A stretch of 64,000 nucleotides of DNA from Escherichia coli (GTDB taxonomy: Bacteria; Pseudomonadota; Gammaproteobacteria; Enterobacterales; Enterobacteriaceae). A model generated the notes under the pieces. The model did no database searches and was not told where the DNA came from. It saw nothing but the letters and a program-made list of their open reading frames with translations. The stretch lies in the NCBI RefSeq assembly GCF_016026235.1, contig NZ_CP065613.1; one strand, written 5' to 3'. A program made the translations under genes and the position numbers. This document shows, in pieces, positions 2,028 through 64,000 of this stretch (its first letter is position 1; every line of letters begins with the position of its first letter).

Positions 2028-2104
2028 GTCATGCCCCAGATATCCAGAACACAACACCCTAACATAGCGTTACTTAAGGGAAATTGACCGCCGACACACT
2101 CTTA

Positions 2105-6297: not shown

Positions 6298-6313
6298 CCA
6301 TCAGCCCGGTCTT

Positions 6314-6350
6314 GTAGGCCTGATAAGACGCGTGAGCGTCGCATCAGGCA
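6314..6350. repeat. REP-like palindromic unit in the cysI-cysH spacer
   Basis: GTAGGCCTGATAAGACGCG...GCGTCGCATCAGGCA inverted repeat. Confidence 0.6.
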
Positions 6351-6370
6351 AGGCAAACAGTGAGGAATCT

Positions 6371-7105
6371 ATGTCCAAACTCGATCTAAACGCCCTGAAC
6401 GAACTGCCGAAGGTAGATCGCATTCTGGCGCTGGCGGAAACTAACGCCCAACTGGAAAAACTGGACGCTGAAGGCCGCGTAGCTTGGGCGCTGGATAATC
6501 TGCCCGGTGAATATGTACTTTCTTCCAGCTTTGGCATTCAGGCGGCGGTGAGCCTGCATCTGGTGAATCAAATTCGCCCGGATATTCCGGTGATCCTCAC
6601 CGATACCGGTTACTTGTTCCCGGAAACCTACCGCTTTATTGACGAGTTAACGGACAAACTCAAGCTCAACCTGAAAGTGTACCGTGCTACCGAAAGCGCA
6701 GCCTGGCAGGAAGCACGCTACGGAAAACTGTGGGAACAGGGCGTTGAAGGCATTGAAAAGTACAATGACATCAACAAAGTCGAACCGATGAACCGGGCGC
6801 TGAAAGAACTTAACGCGCAAACGTGGTTTGCTGGCCTGCGCCGTGAACAATCCGGCAGCCGCGCCAATTTACCGGTGCTGGCAATTCAGCGTGGCGTATT
6901 TAAAGTGCTGCCGATTATCGACTGGGATAACCGAACGATATATCAGTATCTGCAAAAGCATGGCCTGAAATATCACCCATTATGGGACGAAGGATATTTA
7001 TCGGTGGGCGATACCCATACAACCCGTAAATGGGAACCCGGCATGGCGGAAGAAGAAACGCGTTTCTTTGGCTTAAAAAGGGAATGTGGGTTACACGAAG
7101 GGTAA
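6371..7105 (+). CDS. cysH: Phosphoadenosine phosphosulfate (PAPS) reductase
   Basis: 244-aa product [31 protein letters not shown]...; the ORF track extends upstream, start chosen at MSKLD. Confidence 0.93.
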
Positions 7106-7122
7106 ATATTGCCGGATAAATT

Positions 7123-7160
7123 AAACGCCTCTGTCAGAAATGATGGGGGCGTTTTTATTT
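7123..7160 (+). terminator. Putative rho-independent terminator of cysJIH
   Basis: AAACGCCTC...GGGGGCGTTT stem followed by TTTTATTTT immediately after the cysH stop. Confidence 0.45.
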
Positions 7161-7368
7161 TGCGAGCAGCATTCCTGATTTTAAACGTGAACGCCGCTGG
7201 AAGAATTATCAGGTATAGAATGGCGTCGGGTGCTTGAGGCTGTCTGGCGTTAAGCATTCGCGAGGTTCCAGATGGACAAAAGCCCCAGGCGATATTTCTA
7301 TCAACCTGAGGCTCGCGTTCGAACGTAGCAATTCGAATGTTAGTCTCTTCTTTGCAGGGAGGCAAGAC

Positions 7369-7521
7369 ATGCTGACAAAATATGCCCTTGTGGCAATCAT
7401 AGTGCTGTGTTTTACAGTACTGGGATTCACGCTGATGGTAGGCGACTCGTTGTGTGAGTTGAGTATCAGAGAACGTGGTATGGAGTTTAAGGCTGTTCTC
7501 GCTTACGAATCGAAGAAGTAG
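7369..7521 (+). CDS. hokX: Hok/Gef-family type I toxin (50 aa) with an in-frame upstream Mok-like extension back to 7234; position matches the hokX/sokX locus next to cysH
   Basis: [50 protein letters not shown] carries the Hok motifs SLCE..IR and AYES; SD GGGAGG 7-14 nt upstream; gene name by position, from memory. Confidence 0.7.
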
Positions 7522-7543
7522 CCACCACGCGGGGGTAAAACCC

Positions 7544-8303
7544 CTGAGGAATCCCCAGAAAACAAGACAGGCATAGTGAGATGTGATCTAATTGATTGTG
7601 CTAACAATTTCAAGGAGATCACCACTATGCCTGCACGTTCATTATGCCAAAATTTCCTTAACAATATACTGGCCCCTTTGCATCTTTACCGTCAAAAATC
7701 ACTGATTGACGCAACTAATGCTGTAATAAATGGCGCTTCCCTCACACTTACCAGTATCGGGCGTCATTTAACCGGTACGGCATCAGTTAAAAACAAAATA
7801 AAGCGGGTGGATCGACTGTTGGGGAATCGACATTTGCAAAATGAGGTTTCCACCATTTTTCAGCGAATTACCCAAAAGATTACGCGGGGAATGTCTCGTG
7901 TTGTGATACTCATTGACTGGAGTGCTTATCATGCCTCTCGTTTTCAGCTTTTGCGGGCAAGCCTGGCATGTGACGGGCGTTCTTTACCGTTGATGAGTTG
8001 TGTCGTTCCATCATCACAGACAGCGAATGCAGATGTACATGAGCGTTTTCTGGAATCGCTTGCTGAGTGCTTTTCCCCCGGGACTGATGTCATTGTTATT
8101 ACAGATGCCGGTTTTCAGGGGCGATGGTTCCAACAGCTCCGCTCCCGTGGCTGGACCTATATTTGCCGGGTACTGGGCAATCATTATTACAATGTTGGTA
8201 ATGGCTGGGAAAAGGTGTCGGACTCAGGCACAAAAGCATCAACGACAGCAATTTATTTAGGTGAAGGCCTGCTGGGTCGAGATAAAAATGCACAACATGA
8301 AGG
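7544..8303 (+). mobile_element. IS10-like insertion sequence, copy 2, truncated (outside end plus 5' part of transposase), interrupted by IS4
   Basis: Begins CTGAGGAATCCCC 22 bp after the hok stop; inverted duplicate of 1-881; ends where the IS4 left end begins. Confidence 0.8.
7627..8303 (+). pseudogene. IS10-like transposase truncated after codon 225 by the IS4 insertion (the ORF reads 9 more codons into IS4)
   Basis: Identical to the 82-798 product up to ...DKNAQHEG, then diverges into the IS4 left end. Confidence 0.8.
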
Positions 8304-9729
8304 TAATGCCGATCAGTTAAGGATCAGTTGACCGATCCAGTGGCTGTGTAAGAATCCGGAAACGCTCACTTGTTTCCGGATTTTTTTATGCACATTGGAC
8401 AGGCTCTTGATCTGGTATCCCGTTACGATTCTCTGCGTAACCCACTGACTTCTCTGGGGGATTACCTCGACCCCGAACTCATCTCTCGTTGCCTTGCCGA
8501 ATCAGGTACTGTAACGCTACGCAAGCGCCGTCTTCCCCTCGAAATGATGGTCTGGTGTATTGTTGGCATGGCGCTTGAGCGTAAAGAACCTCTTCACCAG
8601 ATTGTGAATCGCCTGGACATCATGCTGCCGGGCAATCGCCCCTTCGTTGCCCCCAGTGCCGTTATTCAGGCCCGCCAGCGCCTGGGAAGTGAGGCTGTCC
8701 GCCGCGTGTTCACGAAAACAGCGCAGCTCTGGCATAACGCCACGCCGCATCCGCACTGGTGCGGCCTGACCCTGCTGGCCATCGATGGTGTGTTCTGGCG
8801 CACACCGGATACACCAGAGAACGATGCAGCCTTCCCCCGCCAGACACATGCCGGGAACCCGGCGCTCTACCCGCAGGTCAAAATGGTCTGCCAGATGGAA
8901 CTGACCAGCCATCTGCTGACGGCTGCAGCCTTCGGCACGATGAAGAACAGCGAAAATGAGCTTGCTGAGCAACTTATAGAACAAACCGGCGATAACACTC
9001 TGACGTTAATGGATAAAGGTTATTACTCACTGGGACTGTTAAATGCCTGGAGCCTGGCGGGAGAACACCGCCACTGGATGATACCTCTCAGAAAGGGAGC
9101 GCAATATGAAGAGCTCAGAAAACTGGGTAAAGGCGATCATCTGGTGAAGCTGAAAACCAGCCCGCAGGCACGAAAAAAGTGGCCGGGACTGGGAAATGAA
9201 GTGACAGCCCGCCTGCTGACCGTGACGCGCAAAGGAAAAGTCTGCCATCTGCTGACGTCGATGACGGACGCCATGCGCTTCCCCGGAGGAGAAATGGCGG
9301 ATCTGTACAGTCATCGCTGGGAAATCGAACTGGGATACAGGGAGATAAAACAGACGATGCAACTGAGCAGGCTGACGCTGAGAAGTAAAAAGCCGGAGCT
9401 TGTGGAGCAAGAGCTGTGGGGTGTCTTACTGGCTTATAATCTGGTGAGATATCAGATGATTAAAATGGCGGAACATCTGAAAGGTTACTGGCCGAATCAA
9501 CTGAGTTTCTCAGAATCATGCGGAATGGTGATGAGAATGCTGATGACATTGCAGGGCGCTTCACCGGGACGTATACCGGAGCTGATGCGCGATCTTGCAA
9601 GTATGGGACAACTTGTGAAATTACCGACGAGAAGGGGAAGGGCCTTCCCGAGAGTGGTAAAGGAGAGGCCCTGGAAATACCCCACAGCCCCGAAAAAGAG
9701 CCAGTCAGTTGCTTAACTGACTGGCATTA
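8304..9729 (+). mobile_element. IS4, complete 1426-bp element with imperfect terminal inverted repeats (TAATGCCGATCAGTTAAGG ... CTTAACTGACTGGCATTA)
   Basis: Length, terminal repeats and encoded InsG match IS4; flanks (ACAACATGAAGG left, CGACATTTGCCG right) are not a direct repeat. Confidence 0.9.
8388..9716 (+). CDS. insG: IS4 transposase InsG (442 aa)
   Basis: [36 protein letters not shown]... near-identical to E. coli IS4 transposase as remembered. Confidence 0.92.
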
Positions 9730-9764
9730 CGACATTTGCCGGGGTTATGAGCATAACGTAATGC

Positions 9765-11282
9765 TTATTTCACCGGACGCATCGCCGGGAACAGAATAAC
9801 ATCGCGGATGGTATGGCTGTTGGTGAACAGCATTACCATACGGTCGATACCAATCCCCAGACCTGCTGTCGGCGGTAAGCCATGTTCCAGTGCGGTAACG
9901 TAATCTTCATCGTAGAACATCGCTTCGTCGTCACCTGCGTCTTTCGCGGCAACCTGATCCAGGAAGCGTTGCGCCTGATCTTCCGCGTCATTCAGCTCGC
10001 TAAAGCCGTTACCGATTTCACGACCACCGATGAAGAACTCAAAGCGGTCTGTGATTTCCGGGTTAATGTCGTTACGACGCGCCAGCGGAGAAACTTCTGC
10101 CGGATATTCAGTAATAAAGGTCGGCTGAATCAGATGTGCTTCTGCCACTTCTTCGAAGATCTCGGTAACGATACGGCCCAGACCCCAGCTCTTCTCAACG
10201 TGGATACCGATAGATTCAGCAATCGCTTTCGCAGAGTCGAAGTTATCCAGATCCGCCATGTCGGTTTCTGGGCGATATTTCTTGATCGCTTCACGCATGG
10301 TCAGTTTTTCGAACGGTTTACCGAAGTCCAGCGTCACGTCGCCGTAGGTCACTTCCGTCTTACCGAGAATATCCTGTGCCAGAGTACGGAACAGCGATTC
10401 GGTCAGCTCGATCAGATCTTTGTAATCTGCGTAAGCCATGTAGAGTTCCATCATGGTGAACTCTGGGTTATGACGTACGGAGATACCTTCGTTACGGAAG
10501 TTACGGTTGATTTCGAATACACGCTCGAAGCCACCGACCACCAGACGCTTGAGGTACAGTTCCGGCGCGATACGCAGGTACATGTCGAGATCCAGCGCGT
10601 TATGGTGGGTGATAAACGGACGCGCAGCGGCACCGCCAGGGATCACCTGCATCATCGGCGTTTCAACTTCCATAAAGCCGCGGTTCACCATGAACTGGCG
10701 AATACCAGAGAGGATCTGCGAGCGTACTTTAAAGGTGTTACGGGATTCATCGTTAGAGATGAGATCCAAATAACGCTGACGATAGCGCGCTTCCTGATCC
10801 TGCAAGCCGTGGAATTTATCCGGCAGCGGACGCAGTGCTTTGGTCAGCAGACGCAGCTCGGTACAGTGGATAGACAGTTCGCCGGTTTTGGTTTTGAACA
10901 GTTTACCTTTCGCGCCGAGGATGTCGCCGAGGTCCCATTTTTTGAACTGCTCGTTGTAAACGCCTTCCGGCAGATCGTCACGGGCAACGTACAGCTGAAT
11001 GCGGCCCCCCACATCCTGCAGGGTAACGAAAGACGCTTTACCCATAATACGACGGGTCATCATGCGGCCAGCAACGGCGACTTCGATGTTCAGCGCTTCC
11101 AGTTCTTCGTTCTCTTTACCGTCGAATTCTGCGTGCAATTGGTCAGAGGTATGATCGCGACGGAAATCGTTCGGGAAGGCAATCCCCTGCTCGCGCAGGT
11201 TCACCAGCTTCTCACGACGCGTTTTCAGTTCATTGTTAAGATCGACTACCGCGTCAGCGCCCTGTGCGTGTTGTTCAGACAT
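9765..11282 (-). CDS. lysS: Lysyl-tRNA synthetase, constitutive
   Basis: 505-aa class II aaRS; directly downstream of prfB. Confidence 0.95.
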
Positions 11283-21100: not shown

Positions 21101-21128
21101 TGCCTGATGCGATACGCTCATCAGGCCT
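21101..21128. repeat. REP-like palindrome after bglA
   Basis: TGCCTGATGCGATACGCTCATCAGGCC. Confidence 0.55.
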
Positions 21129-21210
21129 GGCACTCTTTTAATATATTGAGCTCGCAAGATTTTATATTACGCCTCAGCCGAAACACACAAAGCGCACTTT
21201 ATTAACAAGC

Positions 21211-31327: not shown

Positions 31328-31876
31328 ATGATTCGGCAACGTCGTCGTGCGTTAACGCCGGAACAACAGCAGGAAATGGGTCAACAAGCCGCTACCCGGA
31401 TGATGACTTATCCCCCGGTGGTGATGGCGCATACGGTCGCTGTATTCCTCTCTTTTGATGGTGAACTCGACACCCAGCCGCTAATAGAACAACTCTGGCG
31501 CGCCGGTAAGCGCGTATATCTTCCAGTTTTGCATCCCTTTAGTGCCGGTAATTTGCTGTTCCTGAATTACCATCCGCAAAGCGAACTGGTGATGAACAGG
31601 TTGAAGATCCATGAGCCAAAACTGGATGTGCGTGACGTGCTACCCCTTTCCCGATTAGACGTGCTGATCACACCGCTGGTCGCCTTTGATGAGTACGGTC
31701 AGCGCCTGGGAATGGGCGGTGGTTTTTATGATCGGACCTTACAAAACTGGCAGCACTATAAAACGCAACCGGTGGGTTATGCGCATGATTGTCAGTTGGT
31801 GGAAAAACTCCCCGTTGAAGAGTGGGATATCCCTCTTCCTGCGGTGGTTACACCGTCGAAAGTCTGGGAGTGGTAA
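31328..31876 (+). CDS. ygfA: 5-formyltetrahydrofolate cyclo-ligase (YgfA/Fau), co-transcribed with ssrS
   Basis: 182 aa from MIRQRRRALTPEQQQEMGQQ...; an alternative start at 31274 gives 200 aa. Confidence 0.88.
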   Translation: MIRQRRRALTPEQQQEMGQQAATRMMTYPPVVMAHTVAVFLSFDGELDTQPLIEQLWRAGKRVYLPVLHPFSAGNLLFLNYHPQSELVMNRLKIHEPKLDVRDVLPLSRLDVLITPLVAFDEYGQRLGMGGGFYDRTLQNWQHYKTQPVGYAHDCQLVEKLPVEEWDIPLPAVVTPSKVWEW

Positions 31877-31937
31877 GGGCGATACACCTGCATCGCGCTG
31901 ATTGACATCGTTGATTCTTTAACCTAATTTAGTGAGT

Positions 31938-32082
31938 AAGGGTAAGGGAGGATTGCTCCTCCCCTGTGACTGACTGTTAATAAGCTGGGAAACTTATGAG
32001 TAACAGTACAATCAGTATGATGGCAAGTCGCATCATAACCCTTCTCCTTCAAGCCCTCGCTTCGGTGAGGGCTTTACCGTTA
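31938..32082 (+). ncRNA. sibC: Sib antisense RNA (type I antitoxin), copy 1; ends approximate
   Basis: Promoter TTGACA-17bp-TAATTT at 31902-31930; fully overlaps the ibs ORF on the opposite strand; hairpin AAGCCCTCGCTTCGGTGAGGGCTTT at 32051-32075. Confidence 0.5.
31977..32036 (-). CDS. ibsC: Ibs-family type I toxin, 19 aa (MMRLAIILIVLLLISFPAY)
   Basis: Reverse complement of 31977-32036 translates to an Ibs peptide; SD GGAGAAGGG upstream on the minus strand. Confidence 0.75.
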   Translation of the reverse strand: MMRLAIILIVLLLISFPAY

Positions 32083-32329
32083 CAGCCCCATGCTGCCCAG
32101 TTATCGTAAGCTCTCTTTAAATAACCGCAACGCATTGATCTACCTTTAAATCTTTTCTTCGAGCGCGCTCGAAAAACCCCATGCAAAACAGAGATAATTT
32201 TTGGGAAAAAGGATCTATTACGGCAGTAAACGTGGGCGATGAAGTGGCTATCAAAAAGTTCGGTTCAGGGCGATGCACCCCGCATCGCCCTGATTGACAT
32301 CGTTGATTCTTTGACCTAATTTAGTGAGT

Positions 32330-32474
32330 AAGGGTAAGGGAGGATGACTCCTCCCCTGAGACTGACTGTTAATAAGCTCCGAAACTTATCAGTAACAGTA
32401 CAATCAGTATGATGACAAGTCGCATCATAACCCTTCTCCTTTAAGCCCTCGCTTCGGTGAGGGCTTTACCGTTA
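32330..32474 (+). ncRNA. Sib antisense RNA, copy 2; ends approximate
   Basis: Same promoter and hairpin as copy 1, shifted 392 bp. Confidence 0.5.
32369..32428 (-). CDS. Ibs-family type I toxin, 19 aa (MMRLVIILIVLLLISFGAY), second copy
   Basis: Reverse complement of 32369-32428; differs from copy 1 at two residues. Confidence 0.75.
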   Translation of the reverse strand: MMRLVIILIVLLLISFGAY

Positions 32475-32610
32475 CAGCCCCATGCTGTCCCGCCATCGTA
32501 AATCCCCATTAAATAAACACAACGCATTGATCTGAGTTTGATTTATTTTCTGGAGCAGACTCGCAAAGTAGAATGCGCAACGCGGCAACGGTGTGGAGAA
32601 GGGATAAAAA

Positions 32611-33889: not shown

Positions 33890-34144
33890 TTACCCAATCC
33901 TGTCTTTTGAAATGTTGTGTGCGGATTTGCATCCGCCTTTCAACATATCAAAAAATAATATTGCGGCAATATGAACGTTTGCGTCGCGATGTTGAGGAAA
34001 TATCACGCAAAGGTAATTCTTGGATGAATATGCTGGTTTAGAGGATTTATTTAGAGCAATCGACAATTGCCTGGTAAAAGCGTGACACATGTCACCAAAT
34101 TTAATGAAGAGAATTTTTTTAACGGGGGAGGTTCCCCCGTCAGA

Positions 34145-34804
34145 TCATTTCACAATGGTTTTGACACCGTCAGGTGTGCCAATCAGCGCAACGTCCGCGC
34201 CACGGTTAGCAAACAAGCCAACAGTCACCACGCCAGGAATCGCATTTATGGCGTTTTCCATCGCTATCGGGTCAAGGATTTCCATGCCGTGGACGTCGAG
34301 GATCACGTTGCCATTATCGGTCACCACGCCCTGACGGTATTCCGGACGACCGCCCAGTTTCACCAGCTGGCGCGCCACTGCACTACGTGCCATCGGGATA
34401 ACTTCTACTGGCAGCGGGAATTTACCCAGAATATCAACCTGCTTGGAAGCGTCTGCAATACAGATAAATTTTTCTGCAACCGAAGCAATGATTTTTTCAC
34501 GGGTCAGCGCCGCGCCGCCGCCTTTGATCATTTGCATGTGGCCGTTGATTTCATCTGCGCCATCAACGTAGATGCCAAGGCTGTCGACTTCGTTGAGATC
34601 AAAAACGTGAATGCCGAGGCTTTTCAGTTTTTCAGTGGAAGCATCTGAACTGGAAACGGCCCCTTCAATCTGGCCTTTCATTGTACCGAGCGCGTCAATA
34701 AAGTGTGCGGCGGTGGAACCTGTACCTACACCAACAATGGTGCCGGGCTGAACATACTGAAGTGCCGCCCATCCTACTGCTTTTTTCAATTCATCCTGCG
34801 TCAT
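34145..34804 (-). CDS. rpiA: Ribose-5-phosphate isomerase A
   Basis: 219 aa from [31 protein letters not shown]... Confidence 0.93.
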
Positions 34805-35186
34805 GATCGTTTCGCCTGTGGTATGAAATTTCACACGCATTATATACAAAAAAAGCGATTCAGACCCCGTTGGCAAGCCGCGTGGTTAACTCATCCATAA
34901 AATATCGCGCAATGGCGGGCATCCCCTTTCGCCCCGCAAATAAAGCATACAACGGTCTGGGTATGCCGCTCCACGGTGCGAACAGAGGCAATAACGCCAC
35001 GCCATTCAACATAACCAGGGCGCGAAGTCGCTAAGCGAAATGCAATAGCGCAAATCCCTGATCTTTTAAGCTGCGCGTTTAACCATTGATACAAATGTTA
35101 CCCGCCGACGGCTGCGGTATATGCAACCTGACACAAAATTGTGTCATAGTGCAGGAAAAAGCATTTACTAGGAGCAGACAACAGCA

Positions 35187-36080
35187 ATGAAACGCCCGGA
35201 CTACAGAACATTACAGGCACTGGATGCGGTGATACGTGAACGAGGATTTGAGCGCGCGGCACAAAAGCTGTGCATTACACAATCAGCCGTCTCACAGCGC
35301 ATTAAGCAACTGGAAAATATGTTCGGGCAGCCGCTGTTGGTGCGTACCGTACCGCCGCGCCCGACGGAACAAGGGCAAAAACTGCTGGCACTGCTGCGCC
35401 AGGTGGAGTTGCTGGAAGAAGAGTGGCTGGGCGATGAACAAACCGGTTCGACTCCGCTGCTGCTTTCACTGGCGGTCAACGCCGACAGTCTGGCGACGTG
35501 GTTGCTTCCGGCACTGGCTCCTGTGTTGGCTGATTCGCCTATCCGCCTCAACTTGCAGGTAGAAGATGAAACCCGTACTCAGGAACGTCTGCGCCGCGGC
35601 GAAGTGGTCGGCGCGGTGAGTATTCAACATCAGGCGCTGCCGAGTTGCCTTGTCGATAAGCTCGGTGCGCTTGACTATCTGTTCGTCAGCTCAAAACCGT
35701 TTGCCGAAAAATATTTCCCTAACGGCGTAACGCGTTCGGCATTATTGAAAGCACCTGTGGTCGCCTTTGACCATCTTGACGATATGCACCAGGCCTTTTT
35801 GCAGCAAAACTTCGATCTGCCTCCAGGCAGCGTGCCCTGCCATATCGTTAATTCTTCAGAAGCGTTCGTGCAACTTGCTCGCCAGGGCACCACCTGCTGT
35901 ATGATCCCGCACCTGCAAATCGAGAAAGAACTAGCCAGCGGTGAACTGATTGACTTAACGCCAGGGCTATTTCAACGCCGGATGCTCTACTGGCACCGCT
36001 TTGCTCCTGAAAGCCGCATGATGCGTAAAGTCACTGATGCGTTGCTCGATTATGGTCACAAAGTCCTTCGTCAGGATTAA
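35187..36080 (+). CDS. argP: LysR-family regulator ArgP (IciA)
   Basis: 297 aa, N-terminal HTH. Confidence 0.93.
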
Positions 36081-36283
36081 TCCATCAAATAATGCCTGAT
36101 AGCACATATCAGGCGTTATCCTCACTTCTTTTTGTATTCCTTGAATCACATCACAAAATAGACAAATCTCAGGCGGCAAAAAACGACGTCTGAATGCATT
36201 TTTTTTGCTGGCGACAAACCCACGTAAAAAGCTCACCGTAAGCGCAAATACCCTCATTTTGATTGCGTTTTACGGAGCAAATA

Positions 36284-38428
36284 ATGTCTAACGTGCAGGA
36301 GTGGCAACAGCTTGCCAACAAGGAATTGAGCCGTCGGGAGAAAACTGTCGACTCGCTGGTTCAGCAAACCGCGGAAGGGATCACCATCAAGCCGCTGTAT
36401 ACCGAAGCCGATCTCGATAATCTGGAGGTGACAGGTACCCTTCCTGGTTTGCCGCCCTACGTTCGTGGCCCGCGTGCCACTATGTATACCGCCCAACCGT
36501 GGACCATCCGTCAGTATGCTGGTTTTTCAACAGCAAAAGAGTCCAACGCTTTTTATCGCCGTAACCTGGCCGCCGGGCAAAAAGGTCTTTCCGTTGCGTT
36601 TGACCTTGCCACCCACCGAGGCTACGACTCCGATAACCCGCGCGTGGCGGGCGACGTCGGCAAAGCGGGCGTCGCTATCGACACCGTGGAAGATATGAAA
36701 GTCCTGTTCGACCAGATCCCGCTGGATAAAATGTCGGTTTCGATGACCATGAATGGCGCAGTGCTACCAGTACTGGCGTTTTATATCGTCGCCGCAGAAG
36801 AGCAAGGTGTTACACCTGATAAACTGACCGGCACCATTCAGAACGATATCCTCAAAGAGTACCTCTGCCGCAACACCTATATTTACCCGCCAAAACCGTC
36901 AATGCGCATTATCGCCGACATCATCGCCTGGTGTTCCGGCAACATGCCGCGATTTAATACCATCAGTATCAGCGGTTACCACATGGGTGAAGCGGGTGCC
37001 AACTGCGTGCAGCAGGTAGCATTTACGCTCGCTGATGGGATTGAGTACATCAAAGCAGCAATCTCTGCCGGACTGAAAATTGATGACTTCGCTCCTCGCC
37101 TGTCGTTCTTCTTCGGCATCGGCATGGATCTGTTTATGAACGTCGCCATGTTGCGTGCGGCACGTTATTTATGGAGCGAAGCGGTCAGTGGATTTGGCGC
37201 ACAGGACCCGAAATCACTGGCGCTGCGTACCCACTGCCAGACCTCAGGCTGGAGCCTGACTGAACAGGATCCGTATAACAACGTTATCCGCACCACCATT
37301 GAAGCGCTGGCTGCGACGCTGGGCGGTACTCAGTCACTGCATACCAACGCCTTTGACGAAGCGCTTGGTTTGCCTACCGATTTCTCAGCACGCATTGCCC
37401 GCAACACCCAGATCATCATCCAGGAAGAATCAGAACTCTGCCGCACCGTCGATCCACTGGCCGGATCCTATTACATTGAGTCGCTGACCGATCAAATCGT
37501 CAAACAAGCCAGAGCTATTATCCAACAGATCGACGAAGCCGGTGGCATGGCGAAAGCGATCGAAGCAGGTCTGCCAAAACGAATGATCGAAGAGGCCTCA
37601 GCGCGCGAACAGTCGCTGATCGACCAGGGCAAGCGTGTCATCGTTGGTGTCAACAAGTACAAACTGGATCACGAAGACGAAACCGATGTACTTGAGATCG
37701 ACAACGTGATGGTGCGTAACGAGCAAATTGCTTCGCTGGAACGCATTCGCGCCACCCGTGATGATGCCGCCGTAACCGCCGCGTTGAACGCCCTGACTCA
37801 CGCCGCACAGCATAACGAAAACCTGCTGGCTGCCGCTGTTAATGCCGCTCGCGTTCGCGCCACCCTGGGTGAAATTTCCGATGCGCTGGAAGTCGCTTTC
37901 GACCGTTATCTGGTGCCAAGCCAGTGTGTTACCGGCGTGATTGCGCAAAGCTATCATCAGTCTGAGAAATCGGCCTCCGAGTTCGATGCCATTGTTGCGC
38001 AAACGGAGCAGTTCCTTGCCGACAATGGTCGTCGCCCGCGCATTCTGATCGCTAAGATGGGCCAGGATGGACACGATCGCGGCGCGAAAGTGATCGCCAG
38101 CGCCTATTCCGATCTCGGTTTCGACGTAGATTTAAGCCCGATGTTCTCTACACCTGAAGAGATCGCCCGCCTGGCCGTAGAAAACGACGTTCACGTAGTG
38201 GGCGCATCCTCACTGGCTGCCGGTCATAAAACGCTGATCCCGGAACTGGTCGAAGCGCTGAAAAAATGGGGACGCGAAGATATCTGCGTGGTCGCGGGTG
38301 GCGTCATTCCGCCGCAGGATTACGCCTTCCTGCAAGAGCGCGGCGTGGCGGCGATTTATGGTCCAGGTACACCTATGCTCGACAGTGTGCGCGACGTACT
38401 GAATCTGATAAGCCAGCATCATGATTAA
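36284..38428 (+). CDS. scpA: Methylmalonyl-CoA mutase ScpA (Sbm), B12-dependent
   Basis: 714 aa from [20 protein letters not shown]... Confidence 0.93.
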
Positions 38429-39416
38429 TGAAGCCACGCTGGCAGAAAGTATTCGCCGCTTACGTCAGGGTGAGCGTGCCACACTCGCCCAGGCCATGAC
38501 GCTGGTGGAAAGCCGTCACCCGCGTCATCAGGCACTAAGTACGCAGCTGCTTGATGCCATTATGCCGTACTGCGGTAACACCCTGCGACTGGGCGTTACC
38601 GGCACCCCCGGCGCGGGGAAAAGTACCTTTCTTGAGGCCTTTGGCATGTTGTTGATTCGAGAGGGATTAAAGGTCGCGGTTATTGCGGTCAATCCCAGCA
38701 GCCCGGTCACTGGCGGTAGCATTCTCGGGGATAAAACCCGCATGAATGACCTGGCGCGTGCCGAAGCGGCGTTTATTCGCCCGGTACCATCCTCCGGTCA
38801 TCTGGGCGGTGCCAGTCAGCGAGCGCGGGAATTAATGCTGTTATGCGAAGCAGCGGGTTATGACGTAGTGATTGTCGAAACGGTTGGCGTCGGGCAGTCG
38901 GAAACAGAAGTCGCCCGCATGGTGGACTGTTTTATCTCGTTGCAAATTGCCGGTGGCGGCGATGATCTGCAGGGCATTAAAAAAGGGCTGATGGAAGTGG
39001 CTGATCTGATCGTTATCAACAAAGACGATGGCGATAACCATACCAATGTCGCCATTGCCCGGCATATGTACGAGAGTGCCCTGCATATTCTGCGACGTAA
39101 ATACGACGAATGGCAGCCACGGGTTCTGACTTGTAGCGCACTGGAAAAACGTGGAATCGATGAGATCTGGCACGCCATCATCGACTTCAAAACCGCGCTA
39201 ACTGCCAGTGGTCGTTTACAACAAGTGCGGCAACAACAATCGGTGGAATGGCTGCGTAAGCAGACCGAAGAAGAAGTACTGAATCACCTGTTCGCGAATG
39301 AAGATTTCGATCGCTATTACCGCCAGACGCTTTTAGCGGTCAAAAACAATACGCTCTCACCGCGCACCGGCCTGCGGCAGCTCAGTGAATTTATCCAGAC
39401 GCAATATTTTGATTAA
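38421..39416 (+). CDS. argK: GTPase ArgK/MeaB (methylmalonyl-CoA mutase chaperone)
   Basis: 331 aa, P-loop GTPGAGKST. Confidence 0.92.
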
Positions 39417-39426
39417 AGGAATTTTT

Positions 39427-40212
39427 ATGTCTTATCAGTATGTTAACGTTGTCACTATCAACAAAGTGGCGGTCATTGAGTTTAACTATGGCCGCAAACT
39501 TAATGCCTTAAGTAAAGTCTTTATTGATGATCTTATGCAGGCATTAAGCGATCTCAACCGGCCGGAAATTCGCTGTATCATTTTGCGCGCGCCGAGTGGA
39601 TCCAAAGTCTTCTCCGCAGGCCACGATATTCACGAACTGCCGTCTGGCGGTCGCGATCCGCTCTCCTATGATGATCCATTGCATCAAATCACCCGCATGA
39701 TCCAAAAATTCCCGAAACCGATCATTTCGATGGTGGAAGGTAGTGTTTGGGGTGGCGCATTTGAAATGATCATGAGTTCCGATCTGATTATCGCCGCCAG
39801 TACCTCAACCTTCTCAATGACGCCTGTAAACCTCGGCGTCCCGTATAACCTGGTCGGCATTCACAACCTGACCCGCGACGCGGGCTTCCACATTGTCAAA
39901 GAACTGATTTTTACCGCTTCGCCAATCACCGCCCAGCGCGCGTTGGCTGTCGGCATCCTCAACCATGTTGTGGAAGTGGAAGAACTGGAAGATTTCACCT
40001 TACAAATGGCGCACCACATCTCTGAGAAAGCGCCGTTAGCCATTGCTGTTATCAAAGAAGAGCTGCGTGTACTGGGCGAAGCGCACACCATGAACTCCGA
40101 TGAATTTGAACGTATTCAGGGGATGCGACGCGCGGTTTATGACAGCGAAGATTACCAGGAAGGAATGAACGCTTTCCTCGAAAAACGTAAACCTAATTTC
40201 GTTGGTCATTAA
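39427..40212 (+). CDS. scpB: Methylmalonyl-CoA decarboxylase ScpB (YgfG), crotonase fold
   Basis: 261 aa from MSYQYVNVVTINKVAVIEFNYGRKLNAL... Confidence 0.92.
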   Translation: MSYQYVNVVTINKVAVIEFNYGRKLNALSKVFIDDLMQALSDLNRPEIRCIILRAPSGSKVFSAGHDIHELPSGGRDPLSYDDPLHQITRMIQKFPKPIISMVEGSVWGGAFEMIMSSDLIIAASTSTFSMTPVNLGVPYNLVGIHNLTRDAGFHIVKELIFTASPITAQRALAVGILNHVVEVEELEDFTLQMAHHISEKAPLAIAVIKEELRVLGEAHTMNSDEFERIQGMRRAVYDSEDYQEGMNAFLEKRKPNFVGH

Positions 40213-40235
40213 TCCCTGCGAACGAAGGAGTAAAA

Positions 40236-41714
40236 ATGGAAACTCAGTGGACAAGGATGACCGCCGATGAAGCGGCAGAAATTATCCAGCATAACGACAT
40301 GGTGGCATTTAGCGGCTTTACCCCGGCGGGTTCGCCGAAAGCCCTACCCACCGCGATTGCCCGCAGAGCTAACGAACAGCATGAGGCCAAAAAGCCGTAT
40401 CAAATTCGCCTGCTGACGGGGGCGTCAATCAGCGCCGCCGCTGACGATGTACTTTCTGACGCCGATGCTGTTTCCTGGCGTGCGCCATATCAAACATCGT
40501 CCGGTTTACGTAAAAAGATCAATCAGGGCGCGGTGAGTTTCGTTGACCTGCATTTGAGCGAAGTGGCGCAAATGGTCAATTACGGTTTCTTCGGCGACAT
40601 TGATGTTGCCGTCATTGAAGCATCGGCACTGGCACCGGATGGTCGAGTCTGGTTAACCAGCGGGATCGGTAATGCGCCGACCTGGCTGCTGCGAGCGAAG
40701 AAAGTGATCATTGAACTTAATCACTATCACGATCCGCGCGTTGCAGAACTGGCAGATATTGTGATTCCTGGCGCGCCACCGCGGCGCAATAGCGTGTCGA
40801 TCTTCCATGCAATGGATCGCGTCGGTACCCGCTATGTGCAAATCGATCCGAAAAAGATTGTCGCCGTCGTGGAAACCAACTTGCCCGACGCCGGTAATAT
40901 GCTGGATAAGCAAAATCCCATGTGCCAGCAGATTGCCGATAACGTGGTCACGTTCTTATTGCAGGAAATGGCGCATGGGCGTATTCCGCCGGAATTTCTG
41001 CCGCTGCAAAGTGGCGTGGGCAATATCAATAATGCGGTAATGGCGCGTCTGGGGGAAAACCCGGAAATTCCTCCGTTCATGATGTATTCGGAAGTGCTAC
41101 AGGAATCGGTGGTGCATTTACTGGAAACCGGCAAAATCAGCGGGGCCAGCGCCTCCAGCCTGACAATCTCGGCCGATTCCCTGCGCAAGATTTACGACAA
41201 TATGGATTACTTTGCCAGCCGCATTGTGTTGCGTCCGCAGGAGATTTCCAATAACCCGGAAATCATCCGTCGTCTGGGCGTCATCGCTCTGAACGTCGGC
41301 CTGGAGTTTGATATTTACGGGCATGCCAACTCAACGCACGTAGCCGGGGTCGATCTGATGAACGGCATCGGCGGCAGCGGTGATTTTGAACGCAACGCGT
41401 ATCTGTCGATCTTTATGGCTCCGTCGATTGCTAAAGAAGGCAAGATCTCAACCGTCGTGCCAATGTGCAGCCATGTTGATCACAGCGAACACAGCGTCAA
41501 AGTGATCATCACCGAACAAGGGATCGCCGATCTGCGCGGTCTTTCCCCGCTTCAACGCGCCCGCACTATCATTGATAATTGTGCACATCCTATGTATCGG
41601 GATTATCTGCATCGCTATCTGGAAAATGCGCCCGGCGGACATATTCACCACGATCTTAGCCACGTCTTCGACTTACACCGTAATTTAATTGCAACCGGCT
41701 CGATGCTGGGTTAA
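40236..41714 (+). CDS. scpC: Propionyl-CoA:succinate CoA-transferase ScpC (YgfH)
   Basis: 492 aa. Confidence 0.92.
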   Translation: METQWTRMTADEAAEIIQHNDMVAFSGFTPAGSPKALPTAIARRANEQHEAKKPYQIRLLTGASISAAADDVLSDADAVSWRAPYQTSSGLRKKINQGAVSFVDLHLSEVAQMVNYGFFGDIDVAVIEASALAPDGRVWLTSGIGNAPTWLLRAKKVIIELNHYHDPRVAELADIVIPGAPPRRNSVSIFHAMDRVGTRYVQIDPKKIVAVVETNLPDAGNMLDKQNPMCQQIADNVVTFLLQEMAHGRIPPEFLPLQSGVGNINNAVMARLGENPEIPPFMMYSEVLQESVVHLLETGKISGASASSLTISADSLRKIYDNMDYFASRIVLRPQEISNNPEIIRRLGVIALNVGLEFDIYGHANSTHVAGVDLMNGIGGSGDFERNAYLSIFMAPSIAKEGKISTVVPMCSHVDHSEHSVKVIITEQGIADLRGLSPLQRARTIIDNCAHPMYRDYLHRYLENAPGGHIHHDLSHVFDLHRNLIATGSMLG

Positions 41715-42607
41715 TGGTTTGTCCCGTCACGATCTTCAGCAATATGCTGAAGCATCGTGGCGGTATAACGATGATTTCTGATTGAATAAAGATATTCCTG
41801 CATATACATCGGCCTGTGCGGCGCATCAAAATATTTCAGCGTTGCCGGATTCACCAGTCGCCAGGCAAAATGCGGGATCACCGTCAGAAAATGTCCGCGC
41901 TCCACGGCGCTGATTTTGGCCATAAAACTGTAGGGACGATAAATAATGGTGGGATTGATCCCACAAGGTCGCATATTCGCATCAATCATTGCTTCGAAGT
42001 TAGCCCGGTTTTGAAAGCGCATTTGTAGCCAGGGCAGCTCCTGAAGCAGCTCTTGCTCTTGACGCTCTTCATAACGGCGAGAAACGAGAAAGCCCAATCG
42101 CAGCGGTGGTAATTCACTGATAGTCAGGTTTTCCAGTTCCTGAACTCGTGCAGATACATGCTGTGGGGAGATAATAAAATCTAACTGACGGTCAAAAAGA
42201 TTATCGATAACGCCGTTTTCGCTGAACTCAACTGGCTGGGCGGTCACGCCTTCATACTTATCTCCGAGACTAATCAACTGATCGAAAATAATTGTCGGAT
42301 AAGTATTATCTATGCCAATCACAATTTCTCGTGAACGACGCCCTGAGTTATGGATTTCATTATCAATCGCAGAAAGTCGTTGATAAACCGGGAACAGTTT
42401 TTGATACAGTTCCTGACCGGCTTTATTGAGGCTGATATTATTATCTTTGCGGGTAAATAGCGTATAGCCAATTTGTTCTTCCAGCGCGGCAATGCTTTTA
42501 CCAAATGGCGAAGCCGTCATATGGATTTTTTCTGCCGCCCGGGCAATATTATTGGTTTGCGCTAATAAAATGAAATTGCGCATCTTTTTCGAAATAAAAA
42601 TGTCCAT
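41711..42607 (-). CDS. ygfI: LysR-family transcriptional regulator YgfI
   Basis: About 298 aa with N-terminal HTH; start uncertain (42607 or 42622). Confidence 0.85.
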   Translation of the reverse strand: MDIFISKKMRNFILLAQTNNIARAAEKIHMTASPFGKSIAALEEQIGYTLFTRKDNNISLNKAGQELYQKLFPVYQRLSAIDNEIHNSGRRSREIVIGIDNTYPTIIFDQLISLGDKYEGVTAQPVEFSENGVIDNLFDRQLDFIISPQHVSARVQELENLTISELPPLRLGFLVSRRYEERQEQELLQELPWLQMRFQNRANFEAMIDANMRPCGINPTIIYRPYSFMAKISAVERGHFLTVIPHFAWRLVNPATLKYFDAPHRPMYMQEYLYSIRNHRYTATMLQHIAEDRDGTNH

Positions 42608-42773
42608 CCCCCCTCCCCGCATCCTTGTCCGCTTAACCGTTTCAGTCAGCCTATCCTTGATGAAACCGCGAGCAAAGATAGGTGATTACGTCATGGTTTT
42701 ACAGAAAATTACAGAAAAAGGAGGCAATATCGGGTAAAGGCATTAGCCCGACGAATACGTCGGGCTACAAGTA

Positions 42774-43514
42774 TTATTGTGCTGCAGGTGTTTTAGCGGG
42801 TTGTTGATCCACAGGTTCTAACTGGAAGACCACATCGACCTGATCATCAAACTGAATAGCGGCCTGCTCGTAAGTTTCCTGGGCAGACACCGGCGCGGCA
42901 TCGGCTTTCATCATCCGCACCATTGGGCTGGGCTGATAGTTGGAAACATGGTAGCGCACGCTATATACCGGCCCCAGTTTACGATGAAAGCCGTTCGCCA
43001 GTTCCTGCGCCTGATGAATCGCGTTATCAATCGCTGCCTTACGCGCTTTGTCTTTATAGGCATCCGGCTGCGCCACGCCCAGCGACACAGAACGAATTTC
43101 GTTAAGACCCGCCTTCAGCGCGCCATCCAGCAAGGAATTCAGTTTGTCTAACTGACGGAGCGTGACTTCCACCGTTCTCACAGCGCGGTAGCCTTTCAGG
43201 ATACTTTTACCATCCTGATAATCATAATCTGGCTGGGTGCGTAAATTCGCTGAGCTGATATCTTTTTTCGCGATCTGATTGAGTTCAAGGAAGGAAATGT
43301 ATTGTGCGACGCGCTCATCTGCCTGTTTCTTGGCTGTAGCGGCATCCTTCGCGGCCACGTTAACTTCAATCGCAAGAGTGGCAATGTCTGGCACCGCATC
43401 CACACTTGCCGTACCGGAGGTGACAATATGCGGTCCATCCGGCAATTCGTTAGCCTGCGCTGCCATCCCGCTAATACCCATTAATGCCGCCAGGGCGATA
43501 ACTTTGAACTTCAC
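42774..43514 (-). CDS. yggE: Periplasmic DUF541 (SIMPL-like) protein YggE
   Basis: 246 aa, signal peptide. Confidence 0.9.
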   Translation of the reverse strand: MKFKVIALAALMGISGMAAQANELPDGPHIVTSGTASVDAVPDIATLAIEVNVAAKDAATAKKQADERVAQYISFLELNQIAKKDISSANLRTQPDYDYQDGKSILKGYRAVRTVEVTLRQLDKLNSLLDGALKAGLNEIRSVSLGVAQPDAYKDKARKAAIDNAIHQAQELANGFHRKLGPVYSVRYHVSNYQPSPMVRMMKADAAPVSAQETYEQAAIQFDDQVDVVFQLEPVDQQPAKTPAAQ

Positions 43515-43606
43515 GTTAGTCTCTCCGTGTTAATTGACTTGCCCAAAACTCAGGACCTCTGGAGGCAAGCTTAGCGCCTCTGTTTTATTTTTCCATCAGA
43601 TAGCGC

Positions 43607-44242
43607 CTAACTGAACAAGGCTTGTGCATGAGCAATACCGTCTCTCGCCAGCTGCAAGGCTATAAACCACATGACACATCCCACTACCAGATTGATAATG
43701 CGCTGTGATTTTGCCGTGCGCAGGCGCGGTGCCAGCCAGGCTGCGAGAATAGCCAGACCAAAGAACCACAGGAAAGAGGCGCTAATTGTCCCGAGCGCAA
43801 ACCAACGTTTTGGTTCGACGTCAAGCTGCCCGCCAAGGCTGCCCAGTACAACAAAAGTATCCAGGTAAACATGCGGATTCAGCCAGGTCACTGCCAACAT
43901 GGTGGCGATAATTTTCCATCTGCCTTGCTTCAGGACTTCGGCACTAGCTAACTCAATATTACTACTCATCGCTGTTTTAAAAGCGCCAAAACCATACCAG
44001 AGCAAGAAGACTACGCCGCCCCAGGTGACCAGCGCCAGCAACCACGGCGACTGCATCAATAACGCGCTACCACCAAAAATCCCCGCGCAAATCAGGACCA
44101 AATCGCTGATAGCGCAAAGTAAGGCAATCATAATGTGGTACTGACGACGAATGCCCTGATTCATCACAAAAGCATTTTGTGGGCCGAGCGGCAGAATCAT
44201 AGCTGCCCCAAGAGCAAGACCTTGAAAGTAATAAGAAAACAC
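43607..44242 (-). CDS. argO: Arginine exporter ArgO (LysE family)
   Basis: 211 aa, 6 TM helices. Confidence 0.92.
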
Positions 44243-61240: not shown

Positions 61241-61295
61241 GTCAGACATACCGATCTACAACATAATTGTAGGTCGGTAACGCCTGAATCCCCGA

Positions 61296-62048
61296 TCAGA
61301 GTAGTGATTTCACTTTATTTAGCAAAACGGCTACATCATCCGGTCGGGTATATCCCGTATCAGGGTCTATAATCGAGCTGTAAACATGTGGCATAATGCG
61401 CGGCACCCCCGCCTCCAGACAAGTTTTCAGAATCACACTGAAGTTATCCAAATCAATCCCGCCAGTCGGCTCAATCAGCGTCATACCATTGCGCGCCGCC
61501 GTGGTCGCCAGCGCGTATAGCTCCGGAAGCGACCTCTCGCCGCCCATCGGAAAGAACTTCGCCGCGTGTGCGCCCATATCTAGCATCATTCGCACCGCCG
61601 TATCGCAGGAGACGCGGGCAGGCGTACCCTGGCTGCTGCTAACGCCGGTGGAAATCAGCACTTCGCCCGGCGTCCCCGTCGGGCTAACCAGCGCGTTGAC
61701 ATGGGTCTGCTCACCGCCCGTAGCCGCAAGCGCGCCTGCCGCGAAACCACAACCGGTAAAGGTCTGGTTAACGTGTGCTGGATGAATCTGCGCCGCAATC
61801 ATCGCAGCTTTGTAATACTGCGCCGGGTCACCCGCCCCCAGACCTACTGAAATGGACGGTATTTCCGCCATCCAACGTTTAACTTCCTGGATCCCCTCAT
61901 CCACCGAGGAGAACTGCGCGGAAAGCACGCCAATCACTGCGTGGCCTTCGGCGGCGTCAAAGATTTCACGGGCATTGGCGATATCTTTCGCCAGCACATT
62001 AATTGCCACGCGATTACGATAGAAATTAATCTTTTGCATGATCTGCAA
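61296..62048 (-). CDS. DgaF-like putative aldolase (KDPG-aldolase-type), last gene of a D-glucosaminate-like operon
   Basis: 250-aa ORF directly downstream of the SelA-like gene and PTS IID; family assignment from recollection of the Salmonella dga operon. Confidence 0.55.
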   Translation of the reverse strand: MQIMQKINFYRNRVAINVLAKDIANAREIFDAAEGHAVIGVLSAQFSSVDEGIQEVKRWMAEIPSISVGLGAGDPAQYYKAAMIAAQIHPAHVNQTFTGCGFAAGALAATGGEQTHVNALVSPTGTPGEVLISTGVSSSQGTPARVSCDTAVRMMLDMGAHAAKFFPMGGERSLPELYALATTAARNGMTLIEPTGGIDLDNFSVILKTCLEAGVPRIMPHVYSSIIDPDTGYTRPDDVAVLLNKVKSLL

Positions 62049-63134
62049 TCTCCTTCAGTCGCGCCACGATAAGTGCCATTTCCCCTTCCGCCTCCGTACG
62101 CGGATCAAGGCTAAAAACGCCCTGGTGGAGGTTATACCGCCGTGCATAAATCGCGATATCGCCACCACGCAGTTGCGCTTCGACGACGCGAGCGTCAACT
62201 CCCAATTCCTGCGCATTTACTCGAATACGAATACGCCAGATTGCACGCCCGGCTTCATCCTGCTCAATATCAGCCGTTAACCCGTGAATCGCAGAAATCG
62301 CTTCAACCACTGGCTGGAGCTGTTCCGCGGTGATGACTGCCTGCCCCTGGTGATAATTCTCCAGCGCGTAAACCAGCCCAACCATGTTCTCCTTGCCGAT
62401 TTTCATCGCCCTGGCAATGCCGTGATGCTGCGCTTTGCAGGCTGCAATCCAGATTTTTTACCAGTGATAAACCCGGAGGTCGGCGCGTTAAAGGCTTTTG
62501 CGCCGCTGTAGACCACCATATCCGCTCCGCTCACCACCCAGGCACGTAAATCCTCTTCGGCGGCGGCATCGACAATCAGCGGCAGGTTGTACATCTGCGC
62601 GACATGTGCGAAGTCCTCGATGTTCAACATTCCCTTCTGCACGCAGTGATGCGACTTCACATACAGCAGCGCGGCGGTCGCGTCGGTAATGGCACTCTCC
62701 AGCTGCCAGAGAGCCGCCAGGTTACTTGAACCCACCTCCACAACGCGCCCGCCACCTAAGCGGATCGCGCTGAGGATCGATGCACCGTAATCGACGTTAT
62801 GGCCGCGCAGCATCACCACTTCATTGGCCATGCCGGAGCTATCCGGCATGAGCGCCACCCGGGCCTTGTCGCCGCGTGTAATGGCGGCGGCGACAGCGAT
62901 GGCGATCCCTGCTGAGGCACAGGAGGTAACGTAGCTATCCTCCGCCCCGGTAAAGCGAGAGACCAGCTCGCCGGTTTTGTCCACCAGCTGGTCAATCTCC
63001 ACGAAAGAGGATGCCGCGCGCGCGGTGGCCTGCATCACCTCCGGCGCGACGCTGGAGACGCCGAGAATCGTCATCTTGCCGCAGGCGTTAATCACCTGTT
63101 TCAGTCCCAGTTGTTGATAGATATTCTGCGTCAT
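62026..63134 (-). pseudogene. DgaE-like SelA-family PLP enzyme (putative D-glucosaminate-6-phosphate ammonia-lyase), split by a -1 frameshift in a coding-strand A6 run (plus-strand T6 at 62449-62454)
   Basis: Two ORFs (62403..63134, 243 aa; 62026..62406, 126 aa) together equal a ~369-aa protein; the other frame reads through the junction as ...GKKIWIAACKAQHHGIARAMKIGKE... Confidence 0.7.
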
Positions 63135-63137
63135 GGC

Positions 63138-63995
63138 TTACAGCACTCCCAGCAGCGAGCAGACCACGCTCAACGCCACAATCGACAGCAGAATCGTGGT
63201 GTAACGCGGACCCTTTTTCACCAAATAGAAGTAGATGGCGAACACTGCCGCCAGCGGCAGCAGGCCGGGCGCGATGGAGTCCAGAATCTGCTGTACCACC
63301 ACTTCAGAGCCTTTCAGTGCGCTAATTTTTAAAGGTGAGGTTATCTTGACAAAGCTCGCGGATAGCGCGCCCATCATGATAAGCCCCAGTACGTTAGCGC
63401 CGTAGATAAGCTCCTTGATGCGCCCTCCCTGCAGCAGACTGATAATCGAATCGCGCCCCAGCGTATAGCCCTTGTGCACCATGCCGTAGCTGATTGCCAG
63501 CGTAATCGCCGGGTAGAGAATCAGCGGCAAAATACCGCCCATCGCGCTGCCATTGGCGGCGAACGGGATAAAAATAGCAATCAACAGCGGCATCACCGCC
63601 GCCCAGATGATGGAGTCGCCCATCCCGGCCAGCGGCCCCATCAGGCCGGTTTTAATCCCGGTGATAGAGGCATCGTTAATCGCCTCGCCGCGGGTCTTTT
63701 GCTCTTCCATGGCGATGGAGATCCCCTGGATCACCGCGCCAAACGTCTGCTCTGAGTTGAAGAAGTTCAGATGGCGTTTTAACGCCTCCACCTGCTCCTC
63801 CTTTTGCGGATAGAGCTTTTTGATAATCGGCGTCATCGAGGCGCAGAAAATCAGGCTCTGTAAACGCTCATAGGAGCTGGAAACTTCCGCGCCCAGCCAG
63901 TAGATAAACCACGCTTTGGTGATATCCGCTTTGGTCAGCGCCCCGGACTCCCGCGCGCGCTCAACCAGTTCATGCTGCATTACGTCGTCGCTCAT
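63138..63995 (-). CDS. PTS mannose/sorbose-family EIID component
   Basis: 285-aa polytopic membrane protein; IIC/IIB/IIA would lie beyond the right edge. Confidence 0.8.
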   Translation of the reverse strand: MSDDVMQHELVERARESGALTKADITKAWFIYWLGAEVSSSYERLQSLIFCASMTPIIKKLYPQKEEQVEALKRHLNFFNSEQTFGAVIQGISIAMEEQKTRGEAINDASITGIKTGLMGPLAGMGDSIIWAAVMPLLIAIFIPFAANGSAMGGILPLILYPAITLAISYGMVHKGYTLGRDSIISLLQGGRIKELIYGANVLGLIMMGALSASFVKITSPLKISALKGSEVVVQQILDSIAPGLLPLAAVFAIYFYLVKKGPRYTTILLSIVALSVVCSLLGVL

Positions 63996-64000
63996 TATGC

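Follow-up and report, generated by a model that had tools for sequence, protein, structure and literature searches.

Rare substitutions at invariant residues of ArgK and ScpB in an open-framed, probably weakened scpA-argK-scpB-scpC operon of Escherichia coli

Does an operon in which every reading frame is open still work? The question is raised by the scpA-argK-scpB-scpC locus in a 64,000-nucleotide stretch of Escherichia coli DNA (contig NZ_CP065613.1 of assembly GCF_016026235.1), which is called the window here in its whole length. In our study, positions 36284-41714 were found to be the known E. coli operon of that name (sbm-ygfD-ygfG-ygfH; sleeping beauty mutase), already described elsewhere, and they run exactly from the ATG of scpA to the stop of scpC. 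A preliminary description of the window had called the four genes complete and intact, which was confirmed, since the frames are full-length as in K-12 and all the NCBIfam cut-offs were passed. It had also reasoned that an intact operon has retained its function. For the clone of the window, this second step did not stand at the resolution of single residues. ArgK carries the substitution D91N and ScpB carries R86H, and further damage to the operon was found in sister genomes; because of these, the copy looks like a conditionally dispensable operon in early decay. We consider it fairly probable that the window copy, with all of its frames open, is hypomorphic, and that it represents a conditionally dispensable operon under relaxed constraint in an early, missense-first stage of decay. 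The genes and the two substituted codons are as follows.

36284..38428, plus strand: scpA (sbm), adenosylcobalamin-dependent methylmalonyl-CoA mutase of 714 amino acids (NCBIfam NF006944, 1251.8 bits, cut-off 876).
38421..39416, plus strand: argK (ygfD/meaB), G3E-family GTPase chaperone of the mutase, 331 amino acids (NCBIfam NF006958, 491.1 bits, cut-off 329).
38691..38693, plus strand: codon 91 of ArgK, AAT (Asn) in place of the GAT (Asp) of other E. coli (G>A at 38691), which turns AVDPSS into AVNPSS.
39427..40212, plus strand: scpB (ygfG), crotonase-fold methylmalonyl-CoA decarboxylase, 261 amino acids (NCBIfam NF008506, 485.6 bits, cut-off 257).
39682..39684, plus strand: codon 86 of ScpB, CAT (His) in place of the CGT (Arg) of other E. 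coli (G>A at 39683).
40236..41714, plus strand: scpC (ygfH), propionyl-CoA:succinate CoA transferase of the YgfH subfamily, 492 amino acids (NCBIfam TIGR03458, 754.5 bits, cut-off 658.7).

The substituted residue of ArgK aligns with Asp92 of MeaB in the AVDPSS motif and is the first residue of switch I. Aspartate was found at this position in 99 of 99 homologues (cluster representatives of 58-100% identity), in an alignment where 7% of the positions were strictly invariant. The change at 38691 was polarised against K-12 and the nearest complete genome, HCP4S3_I4. Of 3934 complete genomes, two shared the 61-mer containing N91; the exact window protein was found on 26 contigs. According to PMC9974510, MeaB Asp92 is the proposed water-activating base, which in the active dimer pairs with Lys188 in switch III of the other subunit, and both D92A and D92N decrease the stimulation of GTP hydrolysis by the mutase. 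The human equivalent is MMAA Asp180, as given in PMC10356863. The P-loop, switches I, II and III and the NKxD motif of the M. extorquens MeaB-mutase and human MMAA-MMUT systems are also present in ArgK, whereas the aspartate of switch I is Asn in the window. The window ArgK passes its family cut-off and yet is without this residue; on its sequence it belongs to the MeaB/MMAA family by descent and lacks the functional Asp of switch I. The substitution is expected to lower the hydrolysis of GTP that the mutase stimulates, and thereby to make the gating by the chaperone weaker. The protein is a natural version of the switch I mutation which was studied in vitro in MeaB.

In ScpB, residue 86 was Arg in 83 of 83 homologues (51-100% identity), among which 8% of the positions were invariant. 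The 61-mer with H86 occurred in one of 4198 complete genomes, that of FDAARGOS_943, and the exact window protein was found on 35 contigs. A literature search on the role of Arg86 gave no paper mentioning the residue. R86H lies at a family-invariant Arg, and the decarboxylase is possibly weakened. The two substitutions together point, in our own judgement, to an operon which probably has a weakened chaperone and possibly a weakened decarboxylase and which is not dead. The preliminary description had named inactivating mutations below its resolution as the finding which would overturn its view, and D91N and R86H, at invariant residues, are plausibly mutations of this kind. In practice, function can be read only poorly from open frames: an annotation would list this copy as fully intact, although it carries both changes.

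Both substitutions are, from the comparison of related genomes, derived, rare and recent G>A changes of one clone. HCP4S3_I4 has only 5 base differences from the window over 35187-42607, and it has Asp91 and Arg86. The independent assembly L007 (GCA_031665325.1) was 100% identical to the window over 12,996 nucleotides, both sites included, and N91 together with H86 was also found in isolates L018 and L021. A further locus (L019) has H86 with Asp91; therefore, R86H arose before D91N. FDAARGOS_943, the only complete genome with H86, likewise kept Asp91. Its argK has lost 91 bp between CCGGTCA direct repeats, in the region of window positions 38718-38793, and is annotated as frameshifted. Close to the operon, that genome also has several insertions of IS1 and ISEc60, as well as partial genes (yggP, xanQ, yqfG).

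The sister isolates carry additional missense changes, which were confined to the scp operon. L018 adds L7Q and G130S in ArgK and L288Q in ScpC (window-equivalent positions 38440, 38808 and 41098, respectively), the last of these sitting two residues past Glu286. L021 adds G80V in ScpA (window-equivalent 36522), within the RQYAGFST motif that is common to four aligned solved mutases. The ArgK variant of L018 was found on 1 contig, ScpC L288Q on 2 and ScpA G80V on 3. Over a neighbourhood of 12.8 kb, six missense changes, one frameshift and one synonymous change of the clade lie within the operon, and outside it there are one missense change, two that are synonymous and two that are intergenic. 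Seven of the eight missense or indel events thus fell in the operon (binomial p=0.02), a count to be read with the choice of example loci for differing neighbour proteins, which biases it toward missense changes, and with the post hoc nature and small numbers of the clade tests.

At the level of the species, the claim of retained function was borne out. When 5426 complete E. coli genomes were compared with the 6-kb stretch, all but one (5425) gave a match, with identities of 95-99.9%. The pairwise ratio of nonsynonymous to synonymous substitution rates (dN/dS) between divergent E. coli alleles lay in the range 0.00-0.14, being 0.03 for scpA, 0.08-0.14 for argK, 0.025 for scpB and 0.0 for scpC. 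These values were similar to those of the flanking regulators; therefore, the operon, where it is kept, is kept by selection, and the alleles indicate strong purifying selection across E. coli. Retained function is also weakened as a general claim by the losses of the operon. In 1153 of the 5425 genomes (about 21%), less than 80% of the region was covered. The typical state in these reduced genomes, e.g., avian pathogenic E. coli (APEC) BEN2908, is a deletion of about 4.3 kb, roughly window 37303-41560, which removes the 3' part of scpA, argK, scpB and most of scpC and leaves remnants annotated as partial pseudogenes. The deleted locus lies at the same argP-srsR site, where the 5' part of scpA is still present together with the final ~153 nucleotides of scpC, whereas the window is without the deletion. 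Judged from these genomes, the operon is conditionally dispensable. The native pathway has in addition been argued to be incomplete for propionate derived from glucose, as E. coli is without a methylmalonyl-CoA epimerase (PMC5512728), which speaks against equating an intact operon with a functional one.

Several observations weigh against a weakened copy. The effects of N91 and H86 were judged from the sequence and from the MeaB analogy. Asp to Asn and Arg to His are chemically conservative exchanges, each of which costs about 3 bits against the family profile. According to PMC10356863, MeaB D92A left the intrinsic GTPase unimpaired, so D91N may be a partial defect only, and the expected defect of D91N would lie in signalling and gating and not in nucleotide turnover as such. 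Only 1 of the 14 private changes of the window lineage over 48 kb lies in the operon, i.e., they are not enriched there. The N91 allele is clearly tolerated in nature, given a second lineage which carries it and is widespread. In this second lineage (14EC047 and 101EVA), N91 lies on a different argK haplotype with flanking single-nucleotide polymorphisms 31 and 161 nucleotides away, and therefore arose independently; it was found in 227 index blocks, including a gut metagenome contig.

The intrinsic GTPase of MeaB D92A, the conservative exchanges and the common N91 lineage also support the best of the alternatives, a fully functional operon in which D91N and R86H are neutral and tolerated and which works like the K-12 copy once it is expressed and supplied with B12. 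The frames are open, and the P-loop, NKxD, switch II and switch III of ArgK, the DxHxxG motif of ScpA, His66, Gly110 and Tyr140 of ScpB and Glu286 of ScpC are all intact, as neutrality would have it. What such neutrality leaves hard to explain is that both residues are strictly invariant in their sets of homologues, where so few positions are, that MeaB D92A and D92N lower the mutase-stimulated GTPase, and that both alleles are rare in E. coli although the dN/dS of the genes does not exceed 0.14. A fully functional operon is possible, though on balance improbable.

The weakened copy, which we prefer, was further set against an explanation by selection. Here, the pathway is shut down or re-tuned, joint lesions of ArgK and ScpB are favoured, and the same codons are hit repeatedly. 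Examples of the benefit would be that no methylmalonyl-CoA builds up once ScpB is impaired, or that the mutase no longer sequesters adenosylcobalamin. Codon 86 of ScpB was changed independently at least three times, to His in the window clade, to His in L020 on a pure K-12 haplotype and to Cys in 14EC047, and ArgK D91N arose at least twice; L008 carries D91N on a pure K-12 haplotype. The genomes 14EC047 and 101EVA, which are from unrelated sources and both have N91, were found to differ by one base in 8061 nucleotides, at window-equivalent 39682, where Arg86 of ScpB is changed to Cys in 14EC047. R86C was unique to 14EC047 among the 4198 complete genomes, and both complete genomes with an altered ScpB residue 86 also have a damaged ArgK. 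All four ArgK and ScpB missense changes of the window clade fell in columns which are at least 95% conserved (31-36% of the columns), and the share of clade events inside the operon points the same way. The force of this evidence is reduced by the post hoc tests with their small numbers and by the missense bias of the locus choice, as well as by the expectation that any transition will recur, with 4395 distinct ArgK sequences in one 90% cluster. Lineages with a single lesion, N91 only or H86 only, also exist (L003, L006, L008, L019 and L020), and there is no mechanism for selection on ScpB after ArgK has already been hit. As an explanation for the window, selection is quite unlikely.

In two or three independent lineages, lesions of ArgK and of ScpB occur as a pair, which is less easily set aside than the recurrence of a single change. 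No earlier reports of parallel argK and scpB mutations were found in a literature search. A bolder and rather doubtful proposal is that E. coli lineages repeatedly co-mutate Asp91 of ArgK and Arg86 of ScpB, the two proteins being linked by selection, so that the window would be a case of "cryptic pseudogenisation", silenced by missense changes with its frames open. If this were true, damage to one protein would make damage to the other advantageous, through relief from a toxic intermediate or from the sequestration of adenosylcobalamin, or the pair would re-tune the pathway. A real pairing would offer a natural genetic handle on the role of the pathway in the gut and on whether a half-broken version is harmful. 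Sequencing or assembly error, which has in its favour only that each substitution is a single-base change, is very improbable and was rejected, as the independent assembly L007 is identical over both sites, L018 and L021 carry both changes, and ArgK and ScpB in exactly this form are encoded on 26 and 35 contigs, respectively.

The layout of the operon was compared with that of K-12 (b2917-b2920), and the same four genes were found in the same order, on the same strand and with the same lengths, junctions and flanks, i.e., argP upstream and srsR convergent downstream. From the open reading frame list and the comparison with MG1655, each of the four genes begins with ATG, ends with TAA, is as long as in K-12 and has no stop in between. 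K-12-derived genomes matched the window region with 100% coverage and 99.3% identity. There were 31 nucleotide differences across the four genes and 2 in the argP-scpA spacer. Six amino-acid differences from K-12 were found in the window, namely H27Q and A34T in ScpA, D91N in ArgK, R86H in ScpB, and N11D and V277E in ScpC; those of ScpA and ScpC belong to common alleles, the exact proteins being found on at least 1000 contigs each. The tight packing given in the preliminary description was confirmed, including the 8-bp overlap of scpA and argK (ATGATTAA, 38421-38428). The spacing was 10 bp between argK and scpB and 23 bp between scpB and scpC. The overlapping ATGATTAA junction suggests that argK is translationally coupled to scpA. 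The start of scpB was placed at ATG 39427 and not at GTG 39385 of the mechanical open reading frame list (275 amino acids, overlapping the end of argK). Two observations support this choice: the family model covers residues 15-275 of the long form, and the protein of crystal structure 1EF8 is 261 amino acids long. The long form from the in-frame GTG 39385 is used in some public annotations, e.g., a 275-amino-acid Shigella dysenteriae entry found on 108 contigs.

The gene products were otherwise found to carry the expected motifs. ScpA contains the B12-binding motif DxHxxG as DGHDRG (residues 595-600), and its closest solved structures are human MMUT and P. shermanii MCM (PDB, E about 1e-270). 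It also carries RQYAGFST, the motif with the catalytic Tyr. ArgK contains the P-loop GTPGAGKS at residues 61-68, followed by switch II IVETVG at 151-156, switch III DDLQGIKKG at 181-189 and NKDD at 200-203. Over its whole length, it aligned with MeaB at E=8e-89 and with MMAA at E=7e-77, and its sole difference from the YgfD crystal structure 2P67 is residue 91. Similarly, the sole difference of ScpB from PDB 1EF8 is residue 86. His66, Gly110, Glu113 and Tyr140 of ScpB are present and were invariant in the 83 homologues; His66, Gly110 and Tyr140 reportedly have oxyanion-hole and carboxylate-orienting roles, as given in the original structure paper. The YSEV motif of ScpC aligns with YSEV of AarC, with Glu286 at chain position 294. 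Glu294 is the catalytic residue of AarC, and Glu286 is its counterpart.

The operon is a textbook one in E. coli, and metabolic engineers use it to make propionate, 1-propanol and odd-chain products. It encodes a B12-dependent cycle from succinate to propionate (Haller et al., 2000, as summarised in PMC3850637 and PMC5512728). Succinyl-CoA is isomerised to methylmalonyl-CoA by ScpA in its adenosylcobalamin-loaded form, and ArgK, as a MeaB-type GTPase, gates cofactor loading through mutase-stimulated GTP hydrolysis and protects or repairs the mutase. Methylmalonyl-CoA is then decarboxylated by ScpB to propionyl-CoA, the CoA of which is moved onto succinate by ScpC, so that propionate is freed and succinyl-CoA regenerated. 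Expression, presumably from the argP-scpA spacer, is weak, and activity requires exogenous B12. Deletion of ygfD from a plasmid-borne operon reduced 1-propanol to about one third and left propionate roughly unchanged (PMC3850637). The Wood-Werkman route of Propionibacterium likewise leads from succinate to propionate by a B12-dependent methylmalonyl-CoA mutase and a propionyl-CoA:succinate CoA transferase, whereas it has a methylmalonyl-CoA epimerase and a transcarboxylase where the E. coli operon has a decarboxylase and no epimerase. Unlike the mutases of the M. extorquens and human systems, E. coli ScpA is of the single-subunit type, and the downstream steps in E. coli are a decarboxylase and a CoA transferase, whereas the other two systems feed assimilation pathways.

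The regions on both sides of the operon were as follows.

35187..36080, plus strand: argP, LysR-type regulator in the upstream flank, outside the operon and used as a synteny marker (NCBIfam NF002964, 418 bits), protein-identical to K-12.
36081..36283, plus strand: argP-scpA intergenic region of 203 bp, presumed to hold the leader and a weak promoter of the operon, differing from K-12 at 36118 and 36241.
41711..42607, minus strand: srsR (ygfI), LysR-type regulator in the convergent downstream flank (NCBIfam NF047842, 635.1 bits).

A weak or inactive native promoter and the need for added cyanocobalamin have been described for the operon (PMC3850637), which matches the poor expression given in the preliminary description. 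No match to a consensus sigma-70 promoter was found on the plus strand of the 203-bp spacer, and matches elsewhere did not exceed the shuffle expectation; the lack of a consensus agrees with the weak or inactive promoter of that report. A hairpin was found at 36094-36114, just after the argP stop. Terminator-like matches in 35900-42800 were not in excess (14 found, 8.4 +/- 3.2 expected). No cobalamin riboswitch or other Rfam family matched at E<=1 on either strand of 34000-44000, so that the window operon differs at this threshold from the riboswitch-controlled B12 operons, of which a leader riboswitch is a feature. Downstream, the stops of scpC and the convergent srsR overlap by 4 bp. SrsR was considered as a regulator of the operon and was not supported, since none of scpA, argK, scpB, scpC and sbm is named in the paper on SrsR (PMC9181523).

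The pattern of private mutation in the window lineage was also examined. Between 9730 and 63944, 14 private changes were polarised against FDAARGOS_943, HCP4S3_I4 and K-12; those in coding sequence comprised 5 missense and 8 synonymous changes. Thirteen of the 14 were G:C>A:T. Seven hit the inner cytosine of CCSGG, a position that accounts for 0.8% of all G/C positions (P=7e-12), and in two more the inner cytosine of a CCWGG (Dcm) site was changed. The private sites listed are 10269, 29913, 48523, 48781, 56758, 57669 and 59786, and also 29882 and 35169. A sister genome showed the inner-cytosine signature at 1 of its 13 private changes. The spectrum resembles what deamination would leave behind if the lineage had acquired a C5-cytosine methyltransferase specific for CCNGG/CCSGG. 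Chemical mutagenesis was rejected as the cause of the G:C>A:T excess, as the inner cytosine of CCSGG/CCWGG explains 9 of the 14 changes better. The D91N and R86H sites lie outside the CCSGG/CCWGG motif. A CpG hotspot was likewise rejected for these two sites, as 7 of the 14 private changes were at CpG compared with a background of 32%, which is no clear enrichment.

Other parts of the window were found to differ from K-12 and its relatives. Fragments of IS4-family (insertion sequence) transposases at 82-1125 (minus strand), 7576-8331 (plus strand) and 8370-9716 (plus strand) bracket cysJ (2786-4585), cysI (4585-6297) and cysH (to 7105). These three genes are joined directly to lysS (9765-11282) in the window, whereas in K-12 cysJIH and lysS are about 140 kb apart; in FDAARGOS_943, xanQ to idi precede lysS. 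Window 1-9730 is an IS-mediated rearrangement or deletion. The gene ygfF, which sits between gcvP and bglA in K-12 and HCP4S3_I4, was absent near 21115-21210. Two copies of ~267 nucleotides with 91% identity were found between fau and serA (31876-32141 and 32267-32533); these are tandem Ibs-type type I toxin loci, annotated as ibsC and a second Ibs toxin in related genomes, whereas K-12 annotates a single sibC/ibsC. The segment 49335-52613 between epd and yggC has no K-12 counterpart, and relatives annotate in it a PPC-domain DNA-binding protein, the S and T components of an energy-coupling factor (ECF) transporter and two ATP-binding cassette (ABC) ATPases. Similarly, 61241-64000, beyond loiP, is without a K-12 counterpart and contains D-glucosaminate genes (dgaE, dagF and a mannose-family phosphotransferase system, PTS).

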